Assembly: GCA_963851005.1 (NCBI GenBank)
Contig: CAWKNI010000007.1
Coordinates: 1,630,904 to 1,694,903 of the forward strand
DNA length: 64,000 nucleotides
Reading direction: 5' to 3'
Source: an uncultured delta proteobacterium
GTDB lineage: Bacteria; Desulfobacterota; Syntrophia; Syntrophales; Smithellaceae
Shown: positions 3,901 through 61,446 of the stretch, one piece after another
Numbering within the stretch: the stretch's first letter is position 1
Layout: each line of letters begins with the position of its first letter
Program-made: the position numbers and the translations under genes
Notes under the pieces: generated by a model
Seen by the model: only the letters and a program-made list of their open reading frames with translations
Databases searched by the model: none
What the model was told of the DNA's origin: nothing

Positions 3901-4260
3901 ATGAATATGAAACGTTATATGAAAATTGTAGGGATTACTTTACTCATGGCTGTTTTTTTCTTAGTAAGTCTTCCAACTGTTCAGGCTGAAACTGAGTGGC
4001 AAAAAGATCATCCACGTCGCACCCAGGTTAATAAGCGACTGAAGAATCAAAATCGCCGAATTAATCAAGGAGTGAAAAATGGGAAACTGAATAAGCAAGA
4101 AGCCGCTCAATTACACAAGAAAGACCGTCAAATTAGGCAGGAAGAACGGGATATGGCCTCACAAAATGGTGGGCATATTACCAAACAGGAACAGAAGACA
4201 TTAAATCAGCAGGAAAATGCAGCCAGCAAACAAATATACAATGAAAAACATGGTCAATAA
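3901..4260 (+). CDS. Secreted Gln/Lys/Asn-rich periplasmic protein
   Basis: The ATG at 3901 is preceded by aaaaggag. The signal peptide ends in VQA-ETEW, and the helical charged repeats end in ...SKQIYNEKHGQ. Confidence 0.65.
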   Translation: MNMKRYMKIVGITLLMAVFFLVSLPTVQAETEWQKDHPRRTQVNKRLKNQNRRINQGVKNGKLNKQEAAQLHKKDRQIRQEERDMASQNGGHITKQEQKTLNQQENAASKQIYNEKHGQ

Positions 4261-4317
4261 ATGAGTCACTGCTTACGGTATTACATAGCATAGTAGTCCG
4301 ATAAGGGAGGTAACAAA

Positions 4318-4968
4318 ATGAAAAAGTTGCTTTTTGGAACAATCGTTTTAGCGTTGATAAGTATTTTCCCTATCACGACACTGGCAGGGGTAGATGTGAG
4401 TGTTGGAATTTCTATACCGTTGCCACCGCCTATCACATTTGAAGCACCGCCAGATGTAGTTGCATTACCAGATACCAATGGTGTTTATGTTGATCCTAGT
4501 GTAAACGTAGACATTTTTTTCTGGAATGGTTTTTGGTGGCGTCCATGGGAAGGTCGCTGGTATCGTTCACCGTATTATGATCGTGGCTGGGCTTATTTCG
4601 ATAGTGTTCCAAGATTTTATTATGACGTAGACCCATATTGGAGAGGATACTATCAGAATCACAATTGGCACGGTCACATTTGGAATTATCAACCAATTCC
4701 TCATTCACAACTTCAACAGAACTGGAAGAAGTGGCAAAATAATCGATCTTCGGGCAATCAAAGAACTTGGGGTGTGCAGGGTTATACACCTAAACCTCAA
4801 CAGCAGAGACAGATCCTAAGGCAACAAAGACAAACGATATACCAACAAAAACCTGAAGTTCAAAAACATCAACAATTTCAAAAACAGCAGAGACAACAGC
4901 AGAATAAGGGTAAATCAAATCAACAGTATCGAGGGCATGAAGGCAGAGGTGAAGAACATGGAAGGTAG
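4318..4968 (+). CDS. Secreted Trp/Tyr-rich protein with a Gln-rich tail
   Basis: A gggagg RBS precedes the signal peptide MKKLLFGTIVLALISIFPITTLAG. The W/Y-rich core is FFWNGFWWRPWEGRWYRSPYY and the tail is poly-Q/R. The gene is probably co-transcribed with 3901-4260. Confidence 0.65.
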   Translation: MKKLLFGTIVLALISIFPITTLAGVDVSVGISIPLPPPITFEAPPDVVALPDTNGVYVDPSVNVDIFFWNGFWWRPWEGRWYRSPYYDRGWAYFDSVPRFYYDVDPYWRGYYQNHNWHGHIWNYQPIPHSQLQQNWKKWQNNRSSGNQRTWGVQGYTPKPQQQRQILRQQRQTIYQQKPEVQKHQQFQKQQRQQQNKGKSNQQYRGHEGRGEEHGR

Positions 4969-5012
4969 GAGGACAAGAAGTTGAACACACTATCTTTTTG
5001 ATCGGTGAGTGA

Positions 5013-5046
5013 AAGGCAGGGTCAGAAATGGCTCTGCCTTTTTTTA
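5013..5046 (+). terminator. Rho-independent terminator
   Basis: aaggcag...ctgcctt forms the stem, followed by tttttt. Confidence 0.75.
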
Positions 5047-5053
5047 TGCACCT

Positions 5054-5097
5054 TTTAAATGGTAATCCTCAATCTTGACGACTGCCAAATACTGTGG
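5054..5097 (+). repeat. 44-bp conserved intergenic module (copy 2), abutted by the intron relic
   Basis: tttaaatggtaatcctcaatcttgacgactgccaaatactgtgg. Similarity to copy 1 stops exactly at ...actgtgg, where the intron-like sequence begins. Confidence 0.8.
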
Positions 5098-5780
5098 ATT
5101 TGTAGGGTATGCCGTGTAAAACGTATGACTAGTCGGTTAAAGTCCGACGATGGGAGTTCGGTAGTTCGCCCATGTAGTTGGAGGGAGGTGTTAAGGGTAA
5201 CCTGAAGCATTAAGTTTCCTGACAAAGGCTCCTTAGGGGAGTCGAGCAAACCTGCGGGTCGCAGCGTAAGCGAACCCAGATGTAGCCTCGAAACACAAGA
5301 CGGAGTTGTCGACCCTCTCCTACACAGGGGAAGACCGTAGCATCTATCTTAACGAAAACTACCAGAACCGATAGAGGGACTTCCGGGGTAACAGGGGTGA
5401 CACGCAGGGGCAGCCATACGAGAATGAACACGGGAGACCCTTGTCGATGCTTTACAAGAGGGCAACTGGTGGATATAAGGAAACGAAATTTCACCGGGTT
5501 GGCAAGGGAGTCGGAGTTGCTCATAGTACCGCTTGTATTCCAAGGACAACATAACCTTGGGAGAGGAAAGGGGCAATACCTTCATCATGCTTCTAAAGGA
5601 GGGAAGGAAAGGAGATTACGGTAACGCTATTAACTCTGAATATTTCGAGAATTCCGGTGGAAGCTATACTGGAAGAAGATGATTGGAAAGCCGTATTCGG
5701 GAAAACCGAACGTCCGGTTTGATGAGGGGGAGCTGGAGATAGAACCATTTGGCAACTACGCCAACTCTCTACTCTACTGT
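5098..5780 (+). mobile_element. ORF-less (IEP-deleted) group II intron relic; both boundaries approximate
   Basis: About 680 bp of GC-rich sequence with no credible ORF. It ends in a canonical domain V hairpin (5688-5720) followed by a possible domain VI. Short frames resemble the leader and tail that flank intron RT ORFs (ESELLIVP...GRGKG; GKPNVRFDEGELE). No clean GUGYG 5' end was found. Confidence 0.6.
5688..5720 (+). ncRNA. Group II intron domain V
   Basis: aAGCcgtattcggGAAAaccgaACgtccggttt carries the AGC catalytic triad, a 2-nt AC bulge and a GAAA-type loop at about 34 nt. It has one U-C mismatch relative to the GAGCCGUAU...GUACGGUUC consensus. Confidence 0.7.
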
Positions 5781-51970: not shown

Positions 51971-52091
51971 GGGTGCTACTCCGAAAGAAATTTTTTCTTG
52001 TCCTGCGCCCCTTTCACCTTGTTCCCTGCTCATTATATTCAAAAATTTATCTTGCTAAATATATAAAAACTTATATAATTGACGCGTGACT

Positions 52092-52406
52092 ATGAAATTA
52101 TTAAAATTTGTCGGCTCTAGTTTGGATGATCTACGGGATTTCCCGGAAGAAGCACGTCGTGCTACAGGTTTTGAACTTCGTGCCCTTCAGGATGGATTCG
52201 AACCACGAGATTGTAAGTTTGTTAGAGTTGTCGGGACTGGTGCAAAAGAAATCCGCATTCATGTTCTGGGCGAATGGCGGGTAATTTATGTCGCCAAGAT
52301 TCGTTATGCTATTTATGTATTACATGCATTTCAAAAGAAAACTCAAAAAACGAACCAATGTGATATCGAACTGGCTCGTAAAAGATACAAGCAAATTGGA
52401 GAGTAA
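52092..52406 (+). CDS. Type II toxin, RelE/HigB superfamily (Gp49-like)
   Basis: About 104 aa. LDDLRDFPEEARR...G.KEIRI...EWRVIYVAK....IYVLHAFQKKTQKT is the Gp49/HigB-type pattern. The toxin gene lies upstream of the HTH partner. Confidence 0.75.
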   Translation: MKLLKFVGSSLDDLRDFPEEARRATGFELRALQDGFEPRDCKFVRVVGTGAKEIRIHVLGEWRVIYVAKIRYAIYVLHAFQKKTQKTNQCDIELARKRYKQIGE

Positions 52407-52409
52407 TTT

Positions 52410-52694
52410 ATGAAAAAATCAATTACAGAATCATCGGGCAATGTATTTATTGATTTAGGATACTCACAGGATGAGGCCTCGATTTTGCAAATGCGAGCCG
52501 ATTTGATGGCTGATATCCGAAAATTTATTAAAACAAAAAAACTCACACAAGCCACAGCGGCAAAGATTTTCGGTGTCAGTCAATCGCGTGTTTCAGATTT
52601 AATTACAGGCAAATGGGAAAAGTTCAGCCTTGAAATGCTGATTTCGCTTGTAACCAAAACCGGCATGCATGTTAAGTTGAAGATAGCCGCATAG
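52410..52694 (+). CDS. XRE-family HTH antitoxin (HigA-like)
   Basis: 94 aa with LTQATAAKIFGVSQSRVSDLITGK as the HTH. It starts 3 nt after the toxin stop codon. Confidence 0.75.
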   Translation: MKKSITESSGNVFIDLGYSQDEASILQMRADLMADIRKFIKTKKLTQATAAKIFGVSQSRVSDLITGKWEKFSLEMLISLVTKTGMHVKLKIAA

Positions 52695-52884
52695 GTTTAT
52701 GTAGAGCCTCGTCTGTCATTGCGAGGAGCGCCTTGCGCTCCGTGGCAATCAAATATTTATCTTTTTACTCTTCACCCTTCACCTCTGCCCTGACACATTT
52801 AACTCTTGAACTATTCTCAATAAATTGCTAAGGAATCTAAAGCTTCTAAAAAACAAACCAACACTCCTTTTGTAAGATTTGCCT

Positions 52885-53274
52885 ATGATTGAAAATACCA
52901 TAGCAGTATGGCACAAACTGATTGAAACGAAGGATGCAGCCGGATTGGAAAATATTCTGGCTGATAATGTTGTCTTCCATTCTCCGATTGTTCATACACC
53001 GCAAGAGGGAAAGCCAATCACCAAACTTTATCTTACCGCGGCATTTTATGTTTTCAATAACGACAGCTTTAAATATTTAAGAGAAGTCATTTCCGGCAAC
53101 AATGCCGTTCTGGAATTTACCACAGTGATAGACGGAATCACCGTTAATGGCGTGGACATGATTACCTGGGGCGCTGATGGCAGAATTACCGAATTTAAGG
53201 TAATGGTTCGCCCGCTCAAAGCCATCAACCTAATCCATCGCATGATGGGCGAGATGCTGGAGAAGATTAAATGA
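52885..53274 (+). CDS. NTF2/SnoaL-like fold protein
   Basis: About 129 aa. The pattern W..L......L..ILADNVVFHSP fits SnoaL-like proteins. Confidence 0.5.
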   Translation: MIENTIAVWHKLIETKDAAGLENILADNVVFHSPIVHTPQEGKPITKLYLTAAFYVFNNDSFKYLREVISGNNAVLEFTTVIDGITVNGVDMITWGADGRITEFKVMVRPLKAINLIHRMMGEMLEKIK

Positions 53275-53396
53275 ACATTGCGAGTATATTTAACGTGATT
53301 TTAAAAATGTATTTTAAAAATAGGGTACTGTCTCTATTTAACAACTTCACCAGTCATGTAATTTACTGCATAATAATATATTTTTAGGAGGAAGCT

Positions 53397-54731
53397 ATGA
53401 GCCCCCAAAATGAAGCTCACTCAAATATTGTACAGGGAAGACCAAGCAAAGAGTTATTCATTAATATGTTAATTCGTGATATCTCTTTAATTGATGCAAT
53501 AAGTGATTTAGTTGATAACTGTGTGGATGGAGCTGTTAACTTACGTGGGAAGAAGAAATTTACAGGTTTAGAAATTGATATTACTGTAAAAGACAATTGC
53601 TTCAAGATAAAAGATAATTGCGGTGGAATAGATAAAGAATTGGCACAGAACTATGCTTTTCGTTTCGGTAGACCGTCAAAAACCCCTCAAATAGATTATT
53701 CAGTTGGTCAATTTGGAATCGGCATGAAAAGAGCATTGTTTAAAATGGGTAAGCATTTTGAAATAAAATCCACTTCTGCTAAAACATCTTTTACTATTGA
53801 AATTCCCGTTAAAAAATGGAGTGAAAAAGAAAATGAGTGGGATTTTGAATTTAAAACTGTTACAGAAAAAAGTGCTTTATTATCAGAATGTGGAACAGAA
53901 ATAATAGTAACTTCATTAAAAGAGGATGTAATAGAAAGATTCAAGCAGCAAAATTTCCTATCTGAATTAAAAAACAAATTAGAGCTTCAGCATTTAATTA
54001 ATCTTTCAAAGGGATTAATAATAAAAATTAACAACTATTCTGTCAAGTCAAATCGATTGGAATTATACGATGGCAATAAATTTACAACTGCATATTGGGA
54101 AAAAAAATTTAAAATATATGGTCATACGGATGTTAAGATATATGCTGGGATAGGCACACAAAAGCTTGATAGGGGTGGATGGTATATTTTTTGTAATAAC
54201 AGACTTATACAAGGTCCTGAACAGACGGAGATTAGTGGATGGGGTGCAAAAACTCCAGTAAAAATACCTGAATATCATAGCCAGTTTAATGGATTTAGAG
54301 GTATCGTTCTTTTTGAATCAAAAGAACCATCCTTTTTGCCATGGAACACCTCAAAAACCAGCGTGGATATTGATTCGCAATTATATCAGAATGTAAAACA
54401 TGAAATGATTTGTCTAATGAGGCCTGTAATTGATTTTCTTAATGAAGTCCACAAGGAGAGCACGGCATTTCATAATAAGAAATTAGCAGATAAATATTTG
54501 CAAAATGAAATAGATTCAGCCCCTTTAAAAAACTATATAGATGTTAAAACATCCTCGGTATTTTCAGCGCCATCTCAAAAACAAAAGACCAAAGAAAAAA
54601 ATGAAGTTAAAATAAGCTATCTTAGAAGCGAAGGCAAAGTTGAAAAGTTGAAAATATTCTTTAATGTCTCATCACCAAAACAAGTTGGAGAAAAAACATT
54701 TGATTATGTTTATGATCGGGAGTGCAAATAA
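53397..54731 (+). CDS. GHKL-superfamily ATPase (HATPase_c_3 / MORC-MutL-like)
   Basis: The Bergerat-fold boxes are an N-box DLVDNCVDGA, G1 KDNCGGI and G2 VGQFGIGMKRALF. The protein is 444 aa and the gene is AT-rich. Confidence 0.75.
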   Translation: MSPQNEAHSNIVQGRPSKELFINMLIRDISLIDAISDLVDNCVDGAVNLRGKKKFTGLEIDITVKDNCFKIKDNCGGIDKELAQNYAFRFGRPSKTPQIDYSVGQFGIGMKRALFKMGKHFEIKSTSAKTSFTIEIPVKKWSEKENEWDFEFKTVTEKSALLSECGTEIIVTSLKEDVIERFKQQNFLSELKNKLELQHLINLSKGLIIKINNYSVKSNRLELYDGNKFTTAYWEKKFKIYGHTDVKIYAGIGTQKLDRGGWYIFCNNRLIQGPEQTEISGWGAKTPVKIPEYHSQFNGFRGIVLFESKEPSFLPWNTSKTSVDIDSQLYQNVKHEMICLMRPVIDFLNEVHKESTAFHNKKLADKYLQNEIDSAPLKNYIDVKTSSVFSAPSQKQKTKEKNEVKISYLRSEGKVEKLKIFFNVSSPKQVGEKTFDYVYDRECK

Positions 54732-54733
54732 TA

Positions 54734-55717
54734 ATGACCACAAGTTACGACAGAATTAATTATAATCTACGCCCGGCTAAAACAATTGAACGCAAAATGC
54801 TATGTGAAGCATTCAGGAAATTATTAAATTTTTCTGATTTGACCAAGTATAGATATGTTGGGTTTGGCTCCACATTTTTTACAGATTTCTCCCTTATACA
54901 TAAATCTCTCGGATTAAATGATTTGATAAGTATCGAAAAAGAAATTAAAGACAAAAACAGGTTTAGATTCAATTGCCCTTATAAGTGTATTCGCTTGCTT
55001 TTTGGAGATGCAAATGACGTACTGCCCACGATTGGTTGGGCAAAGAAAATTATTCTTTGGCTTGATTACGATTATTCATTGAGAGAAAGCATGATTACTG
55101 ATGTCGGCACCTTTATATCGCGAGCACAAACAGGGAGCATTATATTATTAACGATGGATGTTAGCCCCGATAAATTGCCGAATAAACATGACGAAAAAAC
55201 AAGATACGAGCAATTAGAAGACCGAATTAATAAATCAAAAATACCAATTGATGTTGAAGAAAAGGATTTAGATAAAGAAAATTATCCGAGAGTTTGTTAT
55301 AATATAGTAAATAACGAAATTGATCAAGTTCTAGCAAGAAGAAACTGGGGACTTGGTAAAAAATACAAATTAAAATATAAGCAACTTTTTAATTTTTTAT
55401 ATAAAGATGGATCTTCTCCAATGCTAAGCATTGGTGGTATCGTTTATTCAAACAATGATGAGGATAAAATAAAGAAATGTAATTTTGAAGGATTAGCTTT
55501 TACTAAATGCAAAAAAGATAAATATGAACCCTATAAAATTGTTGTACCTATTCTTACTTTTGGAGAAATGCGTTATTTAGATAAAAATTTAACATTGCAT
55601 AGAATATCGAAATTAGGAAAAAATAAAAATTTAAAATTTCTATCAAAAGAAATGGTGGAAGAATATAGTAAAATACATAGATATTTTCCAAATTTTGTGG
55701 AAGCAGAAATGCATTAA
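54734..55717 (+). CDS. Uncharacterised 327-aa protein, middle gene of the ATPase-methylase operon
   Basis: The ATG lies 2 nt after the upstream stop codon (TAATAATG). No family is recognised. The motif series YVGFGS / ISIEKE / FGDANDV / LWLDYDY resembles a Rossmann/methyltransferase-like fold. Confidence 0.6.
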   Translation: MTTSYDRINYNLRPAKTIERKMLCEAFRKLLNFSDLTKYRYVGFGSTFFTDFSLIHKSLGLNDLISIEKEIKDKNRFRFNCPYKCIRLLFGDANDVLPTIGWAKKIILWLDYDYSLRESMITDVGTFISRAQTGSIILLTMDVSPDKLPNKHDEKTRYEQLEDRINKSKIPIDVEEKDLDKENYPRVCYNIVNNEIDQVLARRNWGLGKKYKLKYKQLFNFLYKDGSSPMLSIGGIVYSNNDEDKIKKCNFEGLAFTKCKKDKYEPYKIVVPILTFGEMRYLDKNLTLHRISKLGKNKNLKFLSKEMVEEYSKIHRYFPNFVEAEMH

Positions 55718-55721
55718 TAAG

Positions 55722-56909
55722 ATGACTAAAACAAGTAAACATAAAGTTATTGATTTGTTTTCTGGCGCTGGAGGTTTTGGTTTGGGATTCAAAATGTCCG
55801 GATATGATGTGTTTTTTTCTCTAGAAATAGATAAATGGGCAACAGATACATTGCTAGAAAATCAAGACGATGGGATGATAATACTTCAAGACGACATTAG
55901 AAAGTATAAAACAAAAAATGATATTTTAGATGTTTGTAAAAAAATTCCCGATATTATAATAGGTGGCCCACCTTGCCAAGGATTCAGTAATGCTGGGTCA
56001 TTTAAGCGAGACTCAAATGACCCAAGAAATTTGCTTTTTAAGGATTTTGCCAATTGGGTTCAAAACTTGGAGCCCACCGTTTTTATAATGGAGAATGTGA
56101 AAGGAATATTATCAAGATATAATTCAGAAGGTGTTAAGATGATTGAAGTGATAAAAGAAACATTTTCCGACATAGGATATAGTAATTTAAACATCTGGAC
56201 TTTAAATGCAGCAGAATATGGTGTTCCACAATTGAGAGAACGTGTATTTATTGTTGGGCACAAGAAAAATTTAACCATAGAAGCCCCGCTCAAAACACAT
56301 TATATAGATAAGAAAATAAAAGGCTTAAAAAAAGCGGTTACCGTTAAAGCAGCAATTTCTGATTTACCAAAAATCAATGCATCTGAAGGTCAAGAAGTCC
56401 AACGTTATGAGAAGAAGCCAGCATCTGAATATCAAGTTTGGGCAAGAGGAAATCAAAGAATGATATACAATCACATTGCTATGAAGCATACTAAGCGTAT
56501 TATTGAAAGATTTAGTCATATTAATATTGGAGAATCGGTTTCTCGTGTTTCCATAGAATATAAAGAACGAAAGAGAAATGGCAATGGCGAAATTTCCGAA
56601 CAGTCATATAATATGAATAATCGTAGGCTTGATCCTAATAAACCATCTTATACTATTCCAGCATCATTTTATTCTAGTTTTATTCATCCTAACCAAAACA
56701 GAAATATAACTGCAAGAGAAGCGGCGCGTTTACAATCTTTTCCTGATAAATATAGATTTATGGGGAAAAGGACTCTTATATCCTCTAAGTTATCAAAAAA
56801 AAATGGGCATTCTGATTACAACTGTTTATCTCAATATAATCAAATTGGTAATGCGGTCCCGCCTATTTTATCTAAAGTTATTGCCGAACATATAAGTTTG
56901 TTTCTATAG
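55722..56909 (+). CDS. dcm: DNA (cytosine-5)-methyltransferase
   Basis: Motif I DLFSGAGGFGLGF, IV GGPPCQGFS, VI ENVKG, VIII QLRERVFIVG, IX REAARLQSFPD and X GNAVPP. Confidence 0.92.
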   Translation: MTKTSKHKVIDLFSGAGGFGLGFKMSGYDVFFSLEIDKWATDTLLENQDDGMIILQDDIRKYKTKNDILDVCKKIPDIIIGGPPCQGFSNAGSFKRDSNDPRNLLFKDFANWVQNLEPTVFIMENVKGILSRYNSEGVKMIEVIKETFSDIGYSNLNIWTLNAAEYGVPQLRERVFIVGHKKNLTIEAPLKTHYIDKKIKGLKKAVTVKAAISDLPKINASEGQEVQRYEKKPASEYQVWARGNQRMIYNHIAMKHTKRIIERFSHINIGESVSRVSIEYKERKRNGNGEISEQSYNMNNRRLDPNKPSYTIPASFYSSFIHPNQNRNITAREAARLQSFPDKYRFMGKRTLISSKLSKKNGHSDYNCLSQYNQIGNAVPPILSKVIAEHISLFL

Positions 56910-57065
56910 AACTAAAACTTGGCATCAAATATTTTTTTAATAATCACAATCGACGAACCACGCAAGCTCTTGTCAGTAACTGGATTCCCTAGTCAAGCTA
57001 GGGAATGACAGGAATAAAAAGTTAATAGATGCCCAGTTGGCAGCCGGTGGAAAACTAGCACATGG

Positions 57066-57186
57066 GGCTGTTCAAAAATGTCCAGATGCAAGACGCGCAA
57101 AAAACCGAACCGCGAAGCGTATATTAACATACGTTGAGCGGTGCGATTTGCAGCGCAACACAGCAGAAGAGCGTTTTTCAGCAGCC
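57066..57186. repeat. ~121-bp TIR-bounded element related to the 129-bp family
   Basis: The ends are ggctgttcaaaaatg...cgtttttcagcagcc, with 12/15 positions inverted. The central gcgtatattaacatacgttgag parallels gcgtattgtacatacgttgag of the 129-bp repeat. Confidence 0.55.
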
Positions 57187-57219
57187 CTACAGTGCCTAAT
57201 TTAATTTAGGAGGATCAAC

Positions 57220-57411
57220 ATGACAACAACTTCCGTAACAGAAAAAGATAAGAAAATGGCCCAGCGTTGTGTTGAATGTAAGGTATGCACACGCGCAAGA
57301 AAGAAGCAGCGAGGGTTCGCATACTGGTTTGTCAAGACTATCGAGCATGGCATATGCCCATACTGCGCGGCGTATGAAAGGGTTTACGGGAAGAAGGCCC
57401 ATGAGGCTTGA
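57220..57411 (+). CDS. Small Cys-rich (zinc-ribbon-like) protein
   Basis: An aggagg RBS lies 6 nt upstream. The 63-aa protein contains CVECKVC...CPYC. Confidence 0.5.
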   Translation: MTTTSVTEKDKKMAQRCVECKVCTRARKKQRGFAYWFVKTIEHGICPYCAAYERVYGKKAHEA

Positions 57412-60059: not shown

Positions 60060-60392
60060 ATGAAAAGCATGGTAAAAACTCGGCATGAAGCGCGGGCAAA
60101 AATCATCAAGGCTATGGCGCATCCCAGCAGGCTGTTTATCATTGAGGAACTAAGCAAGCATGAACGCTGCGTCAATAAACTGACCGAAATGATCGGAGCC
60201 GATGCTTCGACAGTTTCCAAACATTTGAGCATTTTAAAAAATGCCGGTTTGGTGGCCGATGAAAAAAGGGGAAATTCAATTTTCTACAGTCTGCGTTGCC
60301 CTTGCATCATGGACTTTTTCGGCTGCGTGGAAGATATATTGTCGGCCAACGCTAAGGAACACAATAAAATTGTAAAATCTTATAAAAGATAA
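60060..60392 (+). CDS. arsR: ArsR/SmtB-family metalloregulator
   Basis: KAMAHPSRLFIIEELSKHERCVNKLTEMIGADASTVSKHLSILKNAGLV is a winged HTH with a Cys in the metal site. Confidence 0.85.
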   Translation: MKSMVKTRHEARAKIIKAMAHPSRLFIIEELSKHERCVNKLTEMIGADASTVSKHLSILKNAGLVADEKRGNSIFYSLRCPCIMDFFGCVEDILSANAKEHNKIVKSYKR

Positions 60393-60405
60393 TTAAAGGA
60401 AATTT

Positions 60406-61446
60406 ATGTCAGAACATGTCGCAGATAAATTGTCGTTTCTGGATCGTTTTTTAACTCTATGGATTTTCACAGCCATGATTCTGGGTGTCGGGTTTGGTTA
60501 TTTTATTCCCGGCGTGGAAAGTTTCATTAATAAATTTCAGGCGGGAACAACCAATATTCCCATTGCGGTGGGCCTAATTTTGATGATGTATCCGCCTTTT
60601 GCCAAGGTAAAATACGAGGATTTGCCGGAAGTATTCCATAACGGGAAAGTACTGGGACTTTCACTTGTCCAAAACTGGCTGATCGGACCGATCTTGATGT
60701 TCATTCTGGCGATTGTGTTTTTACCAGATAAGCCTGAATACATGGTGGGCTTGATCATGATTGGCCTGGCACGCTGCATCGCGATGGTCATTGTCTGGAA
60801 TGAACTGGCAAAAGGCAACAGAGAATATGCCGCCGGCCTTGTTGCTTTCAACAGTATTTTTCAGGTTCTTTTTTATAGCGCTTTCGCCTGGTTTTTTATT
60901 ACTGTCCTGCCGCCCTATTTTGGATTTTCCGGCAGCATCGTTGAGGTTAGTATCGCACAAATCGCAAAAAGTGTTTTCATCTATCTGGGTATTCCCTGCA
61001 TTGCCGGGGCATTAACGCGATTTATCGGCGTAAGGCACATGGGAAAAGAGAGGTATCATTCGCGCTTTGTACCGCTGATCTCGCCGCTCACACTTATAGC
61101 GCTTCTTTTCACCATCGTAGTAATGTTCAGTCTGAAGGGCAATTTGATTATTACGCTACCTCTCGATGTCTTGCGAATCGCTATCCCGCTTCTCATCTAT
61201 TTTGTGGTTATGTTTTTAGTGTCGTTCTATCTGGGGAAAAAAATGGGCGCAGATTACTCCAAAACAACAACACTGGCTTTCACCGCAGCGAGCAACAATT
61301 TTGAGCTGGCGATTGCTGTGGCCATTGCCGTTTTCGGCATTAATTCAGGCGCGGCCTTTGCCGCAGTTATCGGCCCTCTGGTTGAGGTACCGGTTATGAT
61401 CGCTCTGGTAAATGTGGCTTTAAAATTTAGAAAGAATTTTTTTTAA
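60406..61446 (+). CDS. acr3: ACR3-family arsenite efflux permease
   Basis: 346 aa with [13 protein letters not shown] and [13 protein letters not shown] (conserved Cys) across 10 TM segments. Confidence 0.88.

Follow-up and report, generated by a model that had tools for sequence, protein, structure and literature searches.

A 64,000-nucleotide (nt) stretch of genome from an uncultured delta proteobacterium of the Smithellaceae (GenBank assembly GCA_963851005.1, contig CAWKNI010000007.1, positions 1,630,904 to 1,694,903; hereafter the window) holds three closely packed plus-strand genes at 53397-56909: a MORC-family ATPase (gene 1), a protein of family PF20553 with a predicted S-adenosylmethionine (SAM)-dependent methyltransferase fold (gene 2) and a DNA cytosine-5 methyltransferase (Dcm; gene 3). 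We propose, at a probability of about 0.5, that this operon is a horizontally acquired self/non-self module resembling restriction-modification (R-M) but lacking a nuclease, in which Dcm would mark the DNA, MORC would read the mark and the PF20553 protein would provide the output. The locus is an uncharacterised, widespread and experimentally tractable MORC-methyltransferase-Dcm module.

The list of open reading frames (ORFs) and a check of the sequence place gene 2 at 2 nt from gene 1 (TAATAATG) and gene 3 at 4 nt from gene 2 (TAATAAGATG). The operon has a GC content of 0.316, compared with 0.435 in the upstream flank, 0.424 in the downstream flank and 0.415 in the whole window, a difference that fits horizontal acquisition of the unit. 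Tight packing and AT-richness were both noted in a preliminary description of the locus, and the coordinates, junctions and composition bear them out. Metagenome contigs carry the same three genes again, with identical protein sequences. A promoter and terminator scan at the operon gave no signal beyond chance, a weak sigma-70-like site at 53346-53374 included, and no flanking repeats or tRNA were found at the island borders.

Gene 1 matches PF13589 (HATPase_c_3; E = 1.5e-11, 44.9 bits against a cutoff of 25). In Foldseek, about 410 columns of its AlphaFold2 (AF2) model, with a predicted local distance difference test score (pLDDT) of 84.8, superpose on the GHKL and transducer modules of Hsp90/TRAP1, MORC2, SMCHD1 and Topo IV. 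The family profile has human MORC4 as its best PDB match (E = 4.6e-5) and sets GGWYIFCNxRLI on GIMMYHNNRLI of MORC4. MORCs are separated from paraMORC1-5 and other GHKL proteins by the motif GhXhhpXXRhl in the S5 domain (Iyer, Abhiman and Aravind 2008, PMC2292703). Because GWYIFCNNRLI in the S5 domain fits this motif, gene 1 is, by its signature, a true prokaryotic MORC. Of the earlier label, a MutL/MORC-like GHKL ATPase, the GHKL part stands, and the signature and the MORC4 match replace the generic remainder. The three Bergerat boxes quoted there (DLVDNCVDG, DNCGGI and GQFGIGMK) are present. GHKL motifs I-IV (D37LVDN41CVD44, D73NCGG77, G104QFGIG109 and T167) are invariant or nearly so among 134 homologues; N41, D44, D73, G77, G107, G109 and K111 do not vary at all, nor does the S5 transducer lysine K320 in LPWNTSK (134/134). 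With these residues in place, MORC looks like an active ATPase. The general base of motif I, position 37, is Asp in 133 of the 134 members, where Glu is typical of MutL, Hsp90 and MORC. Near-invariance extends to two cysteines, C75 (in DNCGG) and C266 (in the MORC motif).

The preliminary description could match the middle protein to nothing, a verdict contradicted by its full-length membership of PF20553 (Methyltransf_35, "putative O-methyltransferase"; E = 2.7e-98, 329.6 bits against a threshold of 27, model positions 2-309 of 309) and by a class I SAM-methyltransferase fold. The AF2 model (pLDDT 87.8) has the seven-strand class I topology with the expected strand order. Foldseek relates it with probability 1.00 to many SAM-dependent methyltransferases, among them COMT-like Rv0187, TrmR, MnmM, Trm1 and EgtD, but with modest template-modelling (TM) scores of 0.3-0.5; viral structures returned only generic methyltransferases. 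The SAM-site positions fall where expected, with a G43-x-G45 loop and with E68 and D111 following strands 2 and 4, respectively. In 166 family sequences, D51, N80, D111, Y112 and E278 are invariant, G43 and E68 are kept in 165, and D225 is likewise invariant or nearly so. This conservation of the SAM site argues for gene 2 encoding a working SAM-dependent enzyme. The likeness to COMT-like/TrmR-type class I O-methyltransferases comprises the seven-strand Rossmann-like SAM fold, the G-x-G loop, the acidic residue that follows strand 2 and, beyond strand 4, a D-x-D that recalls their metal-binding motif; gene 2 differs in having additional regions, a helical insert and a C-terminal part, and it has no sequence-level match to them. 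Both the (D/N/S)PP(Y/F/W) motif and the catalytic Pro-Cys of DNA base methyltransferases are missing: the residues closing strand 4 are W-L-D-Y-D, and no Cys is conserved. Single-sequence and profile searches against PDB sequences gave nothing meaningful for gene 2, and 27 PF20553 members showed not even a weak match to another Pfam methyltransferase family. The SIEKE segment was considered as part of a PD-(D/E)xK site and rejected, since E68 occupies the acidic, SAM-ribose-binding position of the methyltransferase fold. The family comprises 2,293 clusters at 50% identity (E <= 1e-3) from many bacterial phyla and some archaea; among the best 150 of these 2,293 representatives no domain fusion was found, all being stand-alone proteins of about 300-350 amino acids (aa).

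Gene 3 scores 232.6 bits against PF00145, 194.3 bits against TIGR00675 and 414 bits against PADLOC MTase_II. Its 5-methylcytosine (m5C) methyltransferase motifs (FSGAGG, GGPPCQGFS, ENV, QLRERVF, TAREAARLQSFPD and GNAVPP), with I, IV, VI, VIII, IX and X all present, identify it as a complete Dcm, as the preliminary description had it. That description had also seen no recognisable nuclease or Vsr partner, and the searches agree. Nuclease families of Pfam, NCBIfam and PADLOC are absent from genes 1-3 and their neighbours, which places the locus outside classical Type II, I or III R-M. No Vsr was found in the whole window by tblastn with the Vsr consensus and the Vsr proteins of close relatives (best E = 0.5). 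Genes 1 and 2 belong to no NCBIfam family and have no PADLOC match.

Gene neighbourhoods of PF20553 homologues were compared in 168 loci. Of these, 80 are genome loci that span many bacterial phyla and include some archaea, and their neighbours were clustered and then annotated by Pfam; the other 88 are an independent set drawn from 80 metagenome contigs, 6 contigs of IMG/VR, a phage and a plasmid. In 79 of the 80 genome loci the gene directly 5' of the PF20553 gene, in the same orientation, encodes a MORC homologue; the exception is a 1.1-kb contig. MORC is likewise upstream in 82 of the 88 independent loci, and in the other six fewer than 200 nt precede the PF20553 gene. The distance from MORC stop to PF20553 start is -11 to +7 nt in 75 of the 79 loci, most commonly a 1- or 4-nt overlap, and pairwise identities of the two proteins are correlated (r = 0.80). 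Upstream position, tight spacing and correlated divergence show that the MORC and PF20553 genes form one translationally coupled, obligatory unit. In a Planctomycetia locus (L061:5641-9589) a second, fragmented MORC-PF20553 copy lies directly downstream of the first, either a tandem duplication or a decaying copy.

The third component varies. The pair adjoins Dcm, in some loci with Vsr, or a dnd module, and both together in none of the 168 loci. Dcm forms the context in about 42 of the 80 genome loci and, overall, adjoins the pair in roughly half to two thirds of loci. Where Dcm shares the strand of the pair, it precedes the pair in 19 loci and follows it, the order of the window, in 12 (L015 included); in 4 more it lies downstream in the opposite orientation. 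These Dcm proteins come from clearly different lineages. The dnd context accounts for about 29 of the 80 loci, about a third of cassettes, and is arranged as dndC-dndD-dndE::herA-MORC-MT35 with a divergent dndA (MT35 being the PF20553 gene), as dndB-MORC-MT35-dndC-dndD, or with the pair between a CxC-ABC/SF2-helicase module and dndEDC. The association of the middle gene with ATPase and Dcm that the preliminary description had in mind thus holds for the ATPase almost throughout and for Dcm in part, dnd taking up about a third. Since the pair partners either cytosine methylation or, elsewhere, phosphorothioation, the cassette is probably a nuclease-free system for self/non-self DNA discrimination. 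In two Paenibacillus genomes (L070:~3970-5240 and L071:1449-2720) the gene just before MORC-PF20553 encodes a SIR2_2-domain protein, a possible add-on effector, and dnd genes lie in the vicinity.

The closest relatives of the window operon (57-77% identity; L086-L102) have the order MORC-MT35-Dcm, often followed by Vsr in either orientation. Their Vsr genes, set against none in the window, suggest that the window operon lost or replaced Vsr at its 3' border; a remnant was looked for 3' of Dcm and not found. The frequent Vsr of these relatives, an adjacent Vsr at about 8 of the 80 genome loci and the kinship of MORC with MutL would suit a MutL-like repair of damage caused by the modification, either T:G mismatches from m5C deamination or phosphorothioate-associated lesions. 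We consider such a role very unlikely, as Vsr is missing from most loci and from the window, PF20553 has no part in such a scheme, and the pair has a patchy, mobile, prophage-borne distribution.

Alignment columns were scored by mutual information with the Dcm or Dnd context, and residues were counted in full-length proteins of both census sets. MORC positions 296 and 349 classify the partner perfectly, a result reproduced in the independent set. Position 296 is Q in 90 of 90 Dcm-linked proteins and in none of 31 Dnd-linked ones, which have D (24), N (4), T (2) or I (1). Position 349 is N (83), D (5), Y (1) or Q (1) in Dcm-linked and R (13), S (8), K (4), T (4) or G (2) in Dnd-linked proteins. 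The sole discordant case, L128, is a Dnd-linked metagenome contig with N at 349; its MORC is truncated at the contig start, position 296 is uncovered and the upstream sequence is missing. No position of PF20553 separates the two classes (maximum mutual information 0.52, against 0.97 for MORC). With a code in MORC and none in PF20553, adaptation of the cassette to the modification type would reside in MORC, and its methyltransferase-fold partner would be generic; the two tracking residues thus point to MORC as the sensor and to the middle protein as a generic output enzyme. The paired change from Q/N to D with R/K/S looks like that of a compensating pair and suggests that residues 296 and 349 touch.

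Neighbour-joining (NJ) trees built without columns 296 and 349 (100 bootstraps) show that the partner type changed at least 3 times in 100 of 100 bootstraps for each protein. The number of changes is 3-8 for MORC alone and 6-9 for PF20553 alone, compared with about 20 for shuffled labels, and residues 296 and 349 changed along with the partner at every switch. For most Dnd-linked cassettes the best Dcm-linked match is as close as, or closer than, a typical Dnd-linked relative. With at least three switches in trees that leave out these columns, shared ancestry alone does not explain the code. Six loci with no modification gene within reach (L039, L053, L057, L060, L124 and L131) have Dnd-type residues (D296 with R or S at 349), from which the code predicts a phosphorothioation module elsewhere in their genomes. 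Five others with no modification gene within reach (L044, L068, L103, L112 and L119) have Dcm-type residues.

The cassette also travels on mobile elements. MORC and the PF20553 protein each belong to a PHROG family without assigned function. ORF1-3 of the Pseudomonas filamentous phage PfAC20 encode an ATP-binding protein, a hypothetical protein that is 30% identical to the PF20553 protein of the window, and a cytosine methyltransferase, and this triad sits at the accessory end of the phage beside the repressor and excisionase. In sister Pf phages the same accessory (moron) slot holds toxin-antitoxin (TA) genes, Avs, IetAS or PfsE (PfAC20 paper). Two IMG/VR contigs keep the Pf backbone with the triad in a different arrangement, and MORC-MT35 is present, with a convergent Dcm-Vsr, on a conjugative megaplasmid of Sinorhizobium. 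The published annotation of the PfAC20 locus recognises only the methyltransferase, as an incomplete defence (R-M) system, which would suit an orphan Dcm standing by chance beside two unrelated genes. This is scarcely credible given the census, which contradicts it with synteny across phyla in 168 loci, overlapping gene ends and MORC residues that co-vary with the partner.

We infer a defence role, be it restriction or the abortive defence that the preliminary description also suggested, from context alone: the prophage accessory slots, a low-GC island beside a HigB/HigA-like pair, and the coupling to a modification module. In the proposed mechanism, Dcm would write 5-methylcytosine on the host genome as the mark of self. 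MORC would act as an ATP-gated dimeric DNA clamp that reads the modification state, presumably through a site formed by the S5 domain and the next helix, with Q296/N349 in m5C-linked and D296 with R, K or S at 349 in phosphorothioate-linked forms. The PF20553 protein, as the coupled SAM-dependent partner of MORC, would be the output enzyme and would transfer methyl groups to unmarked DNA or to a target accessible by way of it, possibly joined by MORC-driven entrapment or compaction in place of cleavage. The parts allow two ways of harming non-self, methylation of nucleic acid and entrapment or compaction of the MORC type.

Several points weigh against this proposal. Its main weakness is that no nuclease or other recognised effector domain is present, which makes the manner in which non-self DNA is harmed a guess; to our knowledge, a methyltransferase as effector has little precedent. 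With Asp (D37) as its base in place of Glu, MORC may hydrolyse ATP slowly, in the manner of a switch; the contacts of residues 296 and 349 could be with partner proteins and not with DNA; and the NJ trees are rough. In four to five loci whose flanks are complete, no modification gene lies within 4.5 kb. Finally, the location of the pair inside modification operons, for example between dndB and dndC, suits an accessory role in modification equally. MORC-PF20553 would in that case serve as a second, clamp-loaded epigenetic writer, or else as a regulator or maintenance factor that recognises DNA left hemi-modified by replication and steers where or when Dcm or DndCDE act. Its embedding in such operons (dndB-MORC-MT35-dndC, and Dcm-MORC-MT35 with overlapping genes), the intact SAM site of PF20553 and the missing nuclease all agree with this, and the dependence of the MORC residues on modification chemistry is what a hemi-modified-DNA reader would require. 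We nevertheless judge it rather unlikely: published work has Dcm and Dnd modules functioning without the pair in most genomes, PF20553 has neither of the two sequence motifs of DNA base methyltransferases, and carriage with Dcm in the moron slot of Pf prophages is typical of defence cargo.

The kinship of PF20553 with tRNA-modifying and small-molecule O-methyltransferases (TrmR, MnmM, Trm1 and COMT-like enzymes are among its nearest folds), the want of a DNA-methyltransferase motif and the carriage on prophages would also be expected of an abortive-infection or toxin module, in which MORC senses unmodified or replicating foreign DNA and PF20553 methylates host tRNA, rRNA or protein and so arrests growth. 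A module of this kind would have no need of strict one-to-one coupling to a modification module or of modification-specific MORC residues, and no antitoxin-like gene is present; we give it only a small chance.

A more specific form of the proposed self/non-self module, which we put forward as doubtful, is that a bacterial MORC directly senses which modification the DNA carries, 5-methylcytosine or phosphorothioate, at a two-residue site formed by its S5 domain and the next helix, and works with a dedicated SAM-dependent methyltransferase to inactivate unmarked DNA by means other than cleavage. If true, this would be nuclease-free restriction and a prokaryotic forerunner of the MORC-dependent, methylation-linked silencing of foreign DNA in eukaryotes; a methyltransferase-fold effector would be a new biochemical way of restricting DNA. 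The cassette is a minimal three-gene bacterial system that ties MORC genetically to a defined DNA mark, and the two-residue signature that tells m5C-linked from phosphorothioate-linked forms is testable. The pair is a candidate partner for many orphan Dcm and Dnd modification modules without a known restriction component, and its family is widespread yet missed by current defence-finding tools, PADLOC having no model for either protein.

Transposon silencing in plants and animals relies centrally on MORC ATPases, whose link to DNA methylation is still unclear; we know of no experimental study of their bacterial relatives. Eukaryotic MORCs (MORC2/3/4 and plant MORCs) share the ATPase module and signature with gene 1, are tied to DNA methylation and silence foreign or repeat DNA by ATP-dependent DNA entrapment, but they carry CW, chromo or coiled-coil readers and no PF20553 partner, and the catalytic base here is Asp, not Glu. 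The Mza or Dcm-HATPase_c_3-Z1-AIPR clusters, said to go back to Gao in 2020 and Makarova in 2011, reportedly combine Dcm with a MutL-like HATPase_c_3 ATPase in a defence island, like the window operon; Z1, AIPR and the other components are not among the adjacent ORFs here, and genes 1 and 2 have no PADLOC mza match. With BREX and DISARM the operon would share methylation-marked self, ATPases and exclusion without a classical restriction endonuclease, but PglZ, BrxC, BrxL, DrmA and DrmB are missing, and Dcm alone resembles the DrmMII/DruM-type methylases, at family level.

Prokaryotic MORCs have been placed in R-M contexts before, a minority of their neighbourhoods having methylases and no helicase (Iyer et al. 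2008, PMC2292703). As here, those MORC/paraMORC operons set a GHKL and S5 ATPase with the MORC signature beside a DNA cytosine methylase, sometimes with Vsr, in mobile, sporadic islands; theirs pair MORC with superfamily 2 (SF2) helicases and nucleases of the restriction endonuclease (RE) fold, HNH or HKD types, whereas the constant partner here is a PF20553 protein without nuclease or helicase, and the Dnd linkage and two-residue code are absent there (PMC2292703). A 2024 reappraisal, which makes no mention of GHKL, MORC or MutL, stresses that DndFGH is missing from most Dnd modification modules and that these have other partners (PMC10853773). Relatives of the window cassette occupy the restriction-partner position in dnd operons and in this resemble Dnd/Pbe/Ssp defence, but the window has Dcm and not dnd, and MORC-PF20553 is unrelated to DndFGH, PbeABCD, SspE and DndI. 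No mention of PF20553 or Methyltransf_35 was found in the literature searched, and nothing relevant was found in that on MADS and GHKL defence. The constant PF20553 partner, the absence of a nuclease, the Dnd coupling and the residue code are undescribed in the literature searched, a coverage without the possibly relevant Krishnan et al. 2020.

Table 1. Coordinates of the operon, its sites and other features of the window.
Feature	Position	Strand	Remark
Shine-Dalgarno AGGAGG	53386..53391	+	5 nt 5' of gene 1 ATG
Gene 1, prokaryotic MORC-family ATPase	53397..54731	+	444 aa; GHKL, S5 transducer and C-terminal helical extension
D37 codon of MORC	53505..53507	+	motif I general base
MORC signature GWYIFCNNRLI	54177..54209	+	begins at G261
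Q296 codon of MORC	54282..54284	+	in YHSQF
N349 codon of MORC	54441..54443	+	in FLN
Gene 2, PF20553 protein, class I SAM-methyltransferase fold	54734..55717	+	327 aa from ATG
Gene 3, Dcm	55722..56909	+	395 aa from ATG; all ten motifs
HigB/Gp49-like toxin and HTH_37/XRE antitoxin	52086..52694	+	106 aa and 94 aa; about 700 nt upstream of operon
SnoaL_2 protein	52879..53274		between TA pair and operon
Hairpin-like element	57050..57200	+	in 310-nt gap 3' of Dcm
Zinc-ribbon-like ORF	57220..57411	+	63 aa, two CxxC pairs
ArsR-like regulator, then ACR3-type arsenite efflux permease	60060..61446	+	
Group II intron matches	5130..5777	+	

The neighbours of the operon are the Gp49/HigB-like toxin with its helix-turn-helix (HTH) antitoxin, a SnoaL-like protein (SnoaL_2), an amidohydrolase (Amidohydro_2) and a dodecin. 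The TA pair and the SnoaL_2 protein have an intermediate GC content of about 0.39-0.40 and may belong to the same island as the operon. On the other side, a long, near-perfect hairpin-like element present once in the window has a minimum free energy as RNA of -58.1 kcal/mol (z = -6.05 against shuffled sequences) and no Rfam family; it could be a mark of the island border, a terminator or the remnant of a mobile element. The short zinc-ribbon-like ORF directly 3' of this element has its own AGGAGG and a host-like GC content. Further downstream lie the genes for the ArsR-like regulator and the arsenite permease. Far upstream of the operon, Rfam models of group II introns match at D1-D4 (RF02003, 79 bits) and at the catalytic domain (RF00029, 43 bits).

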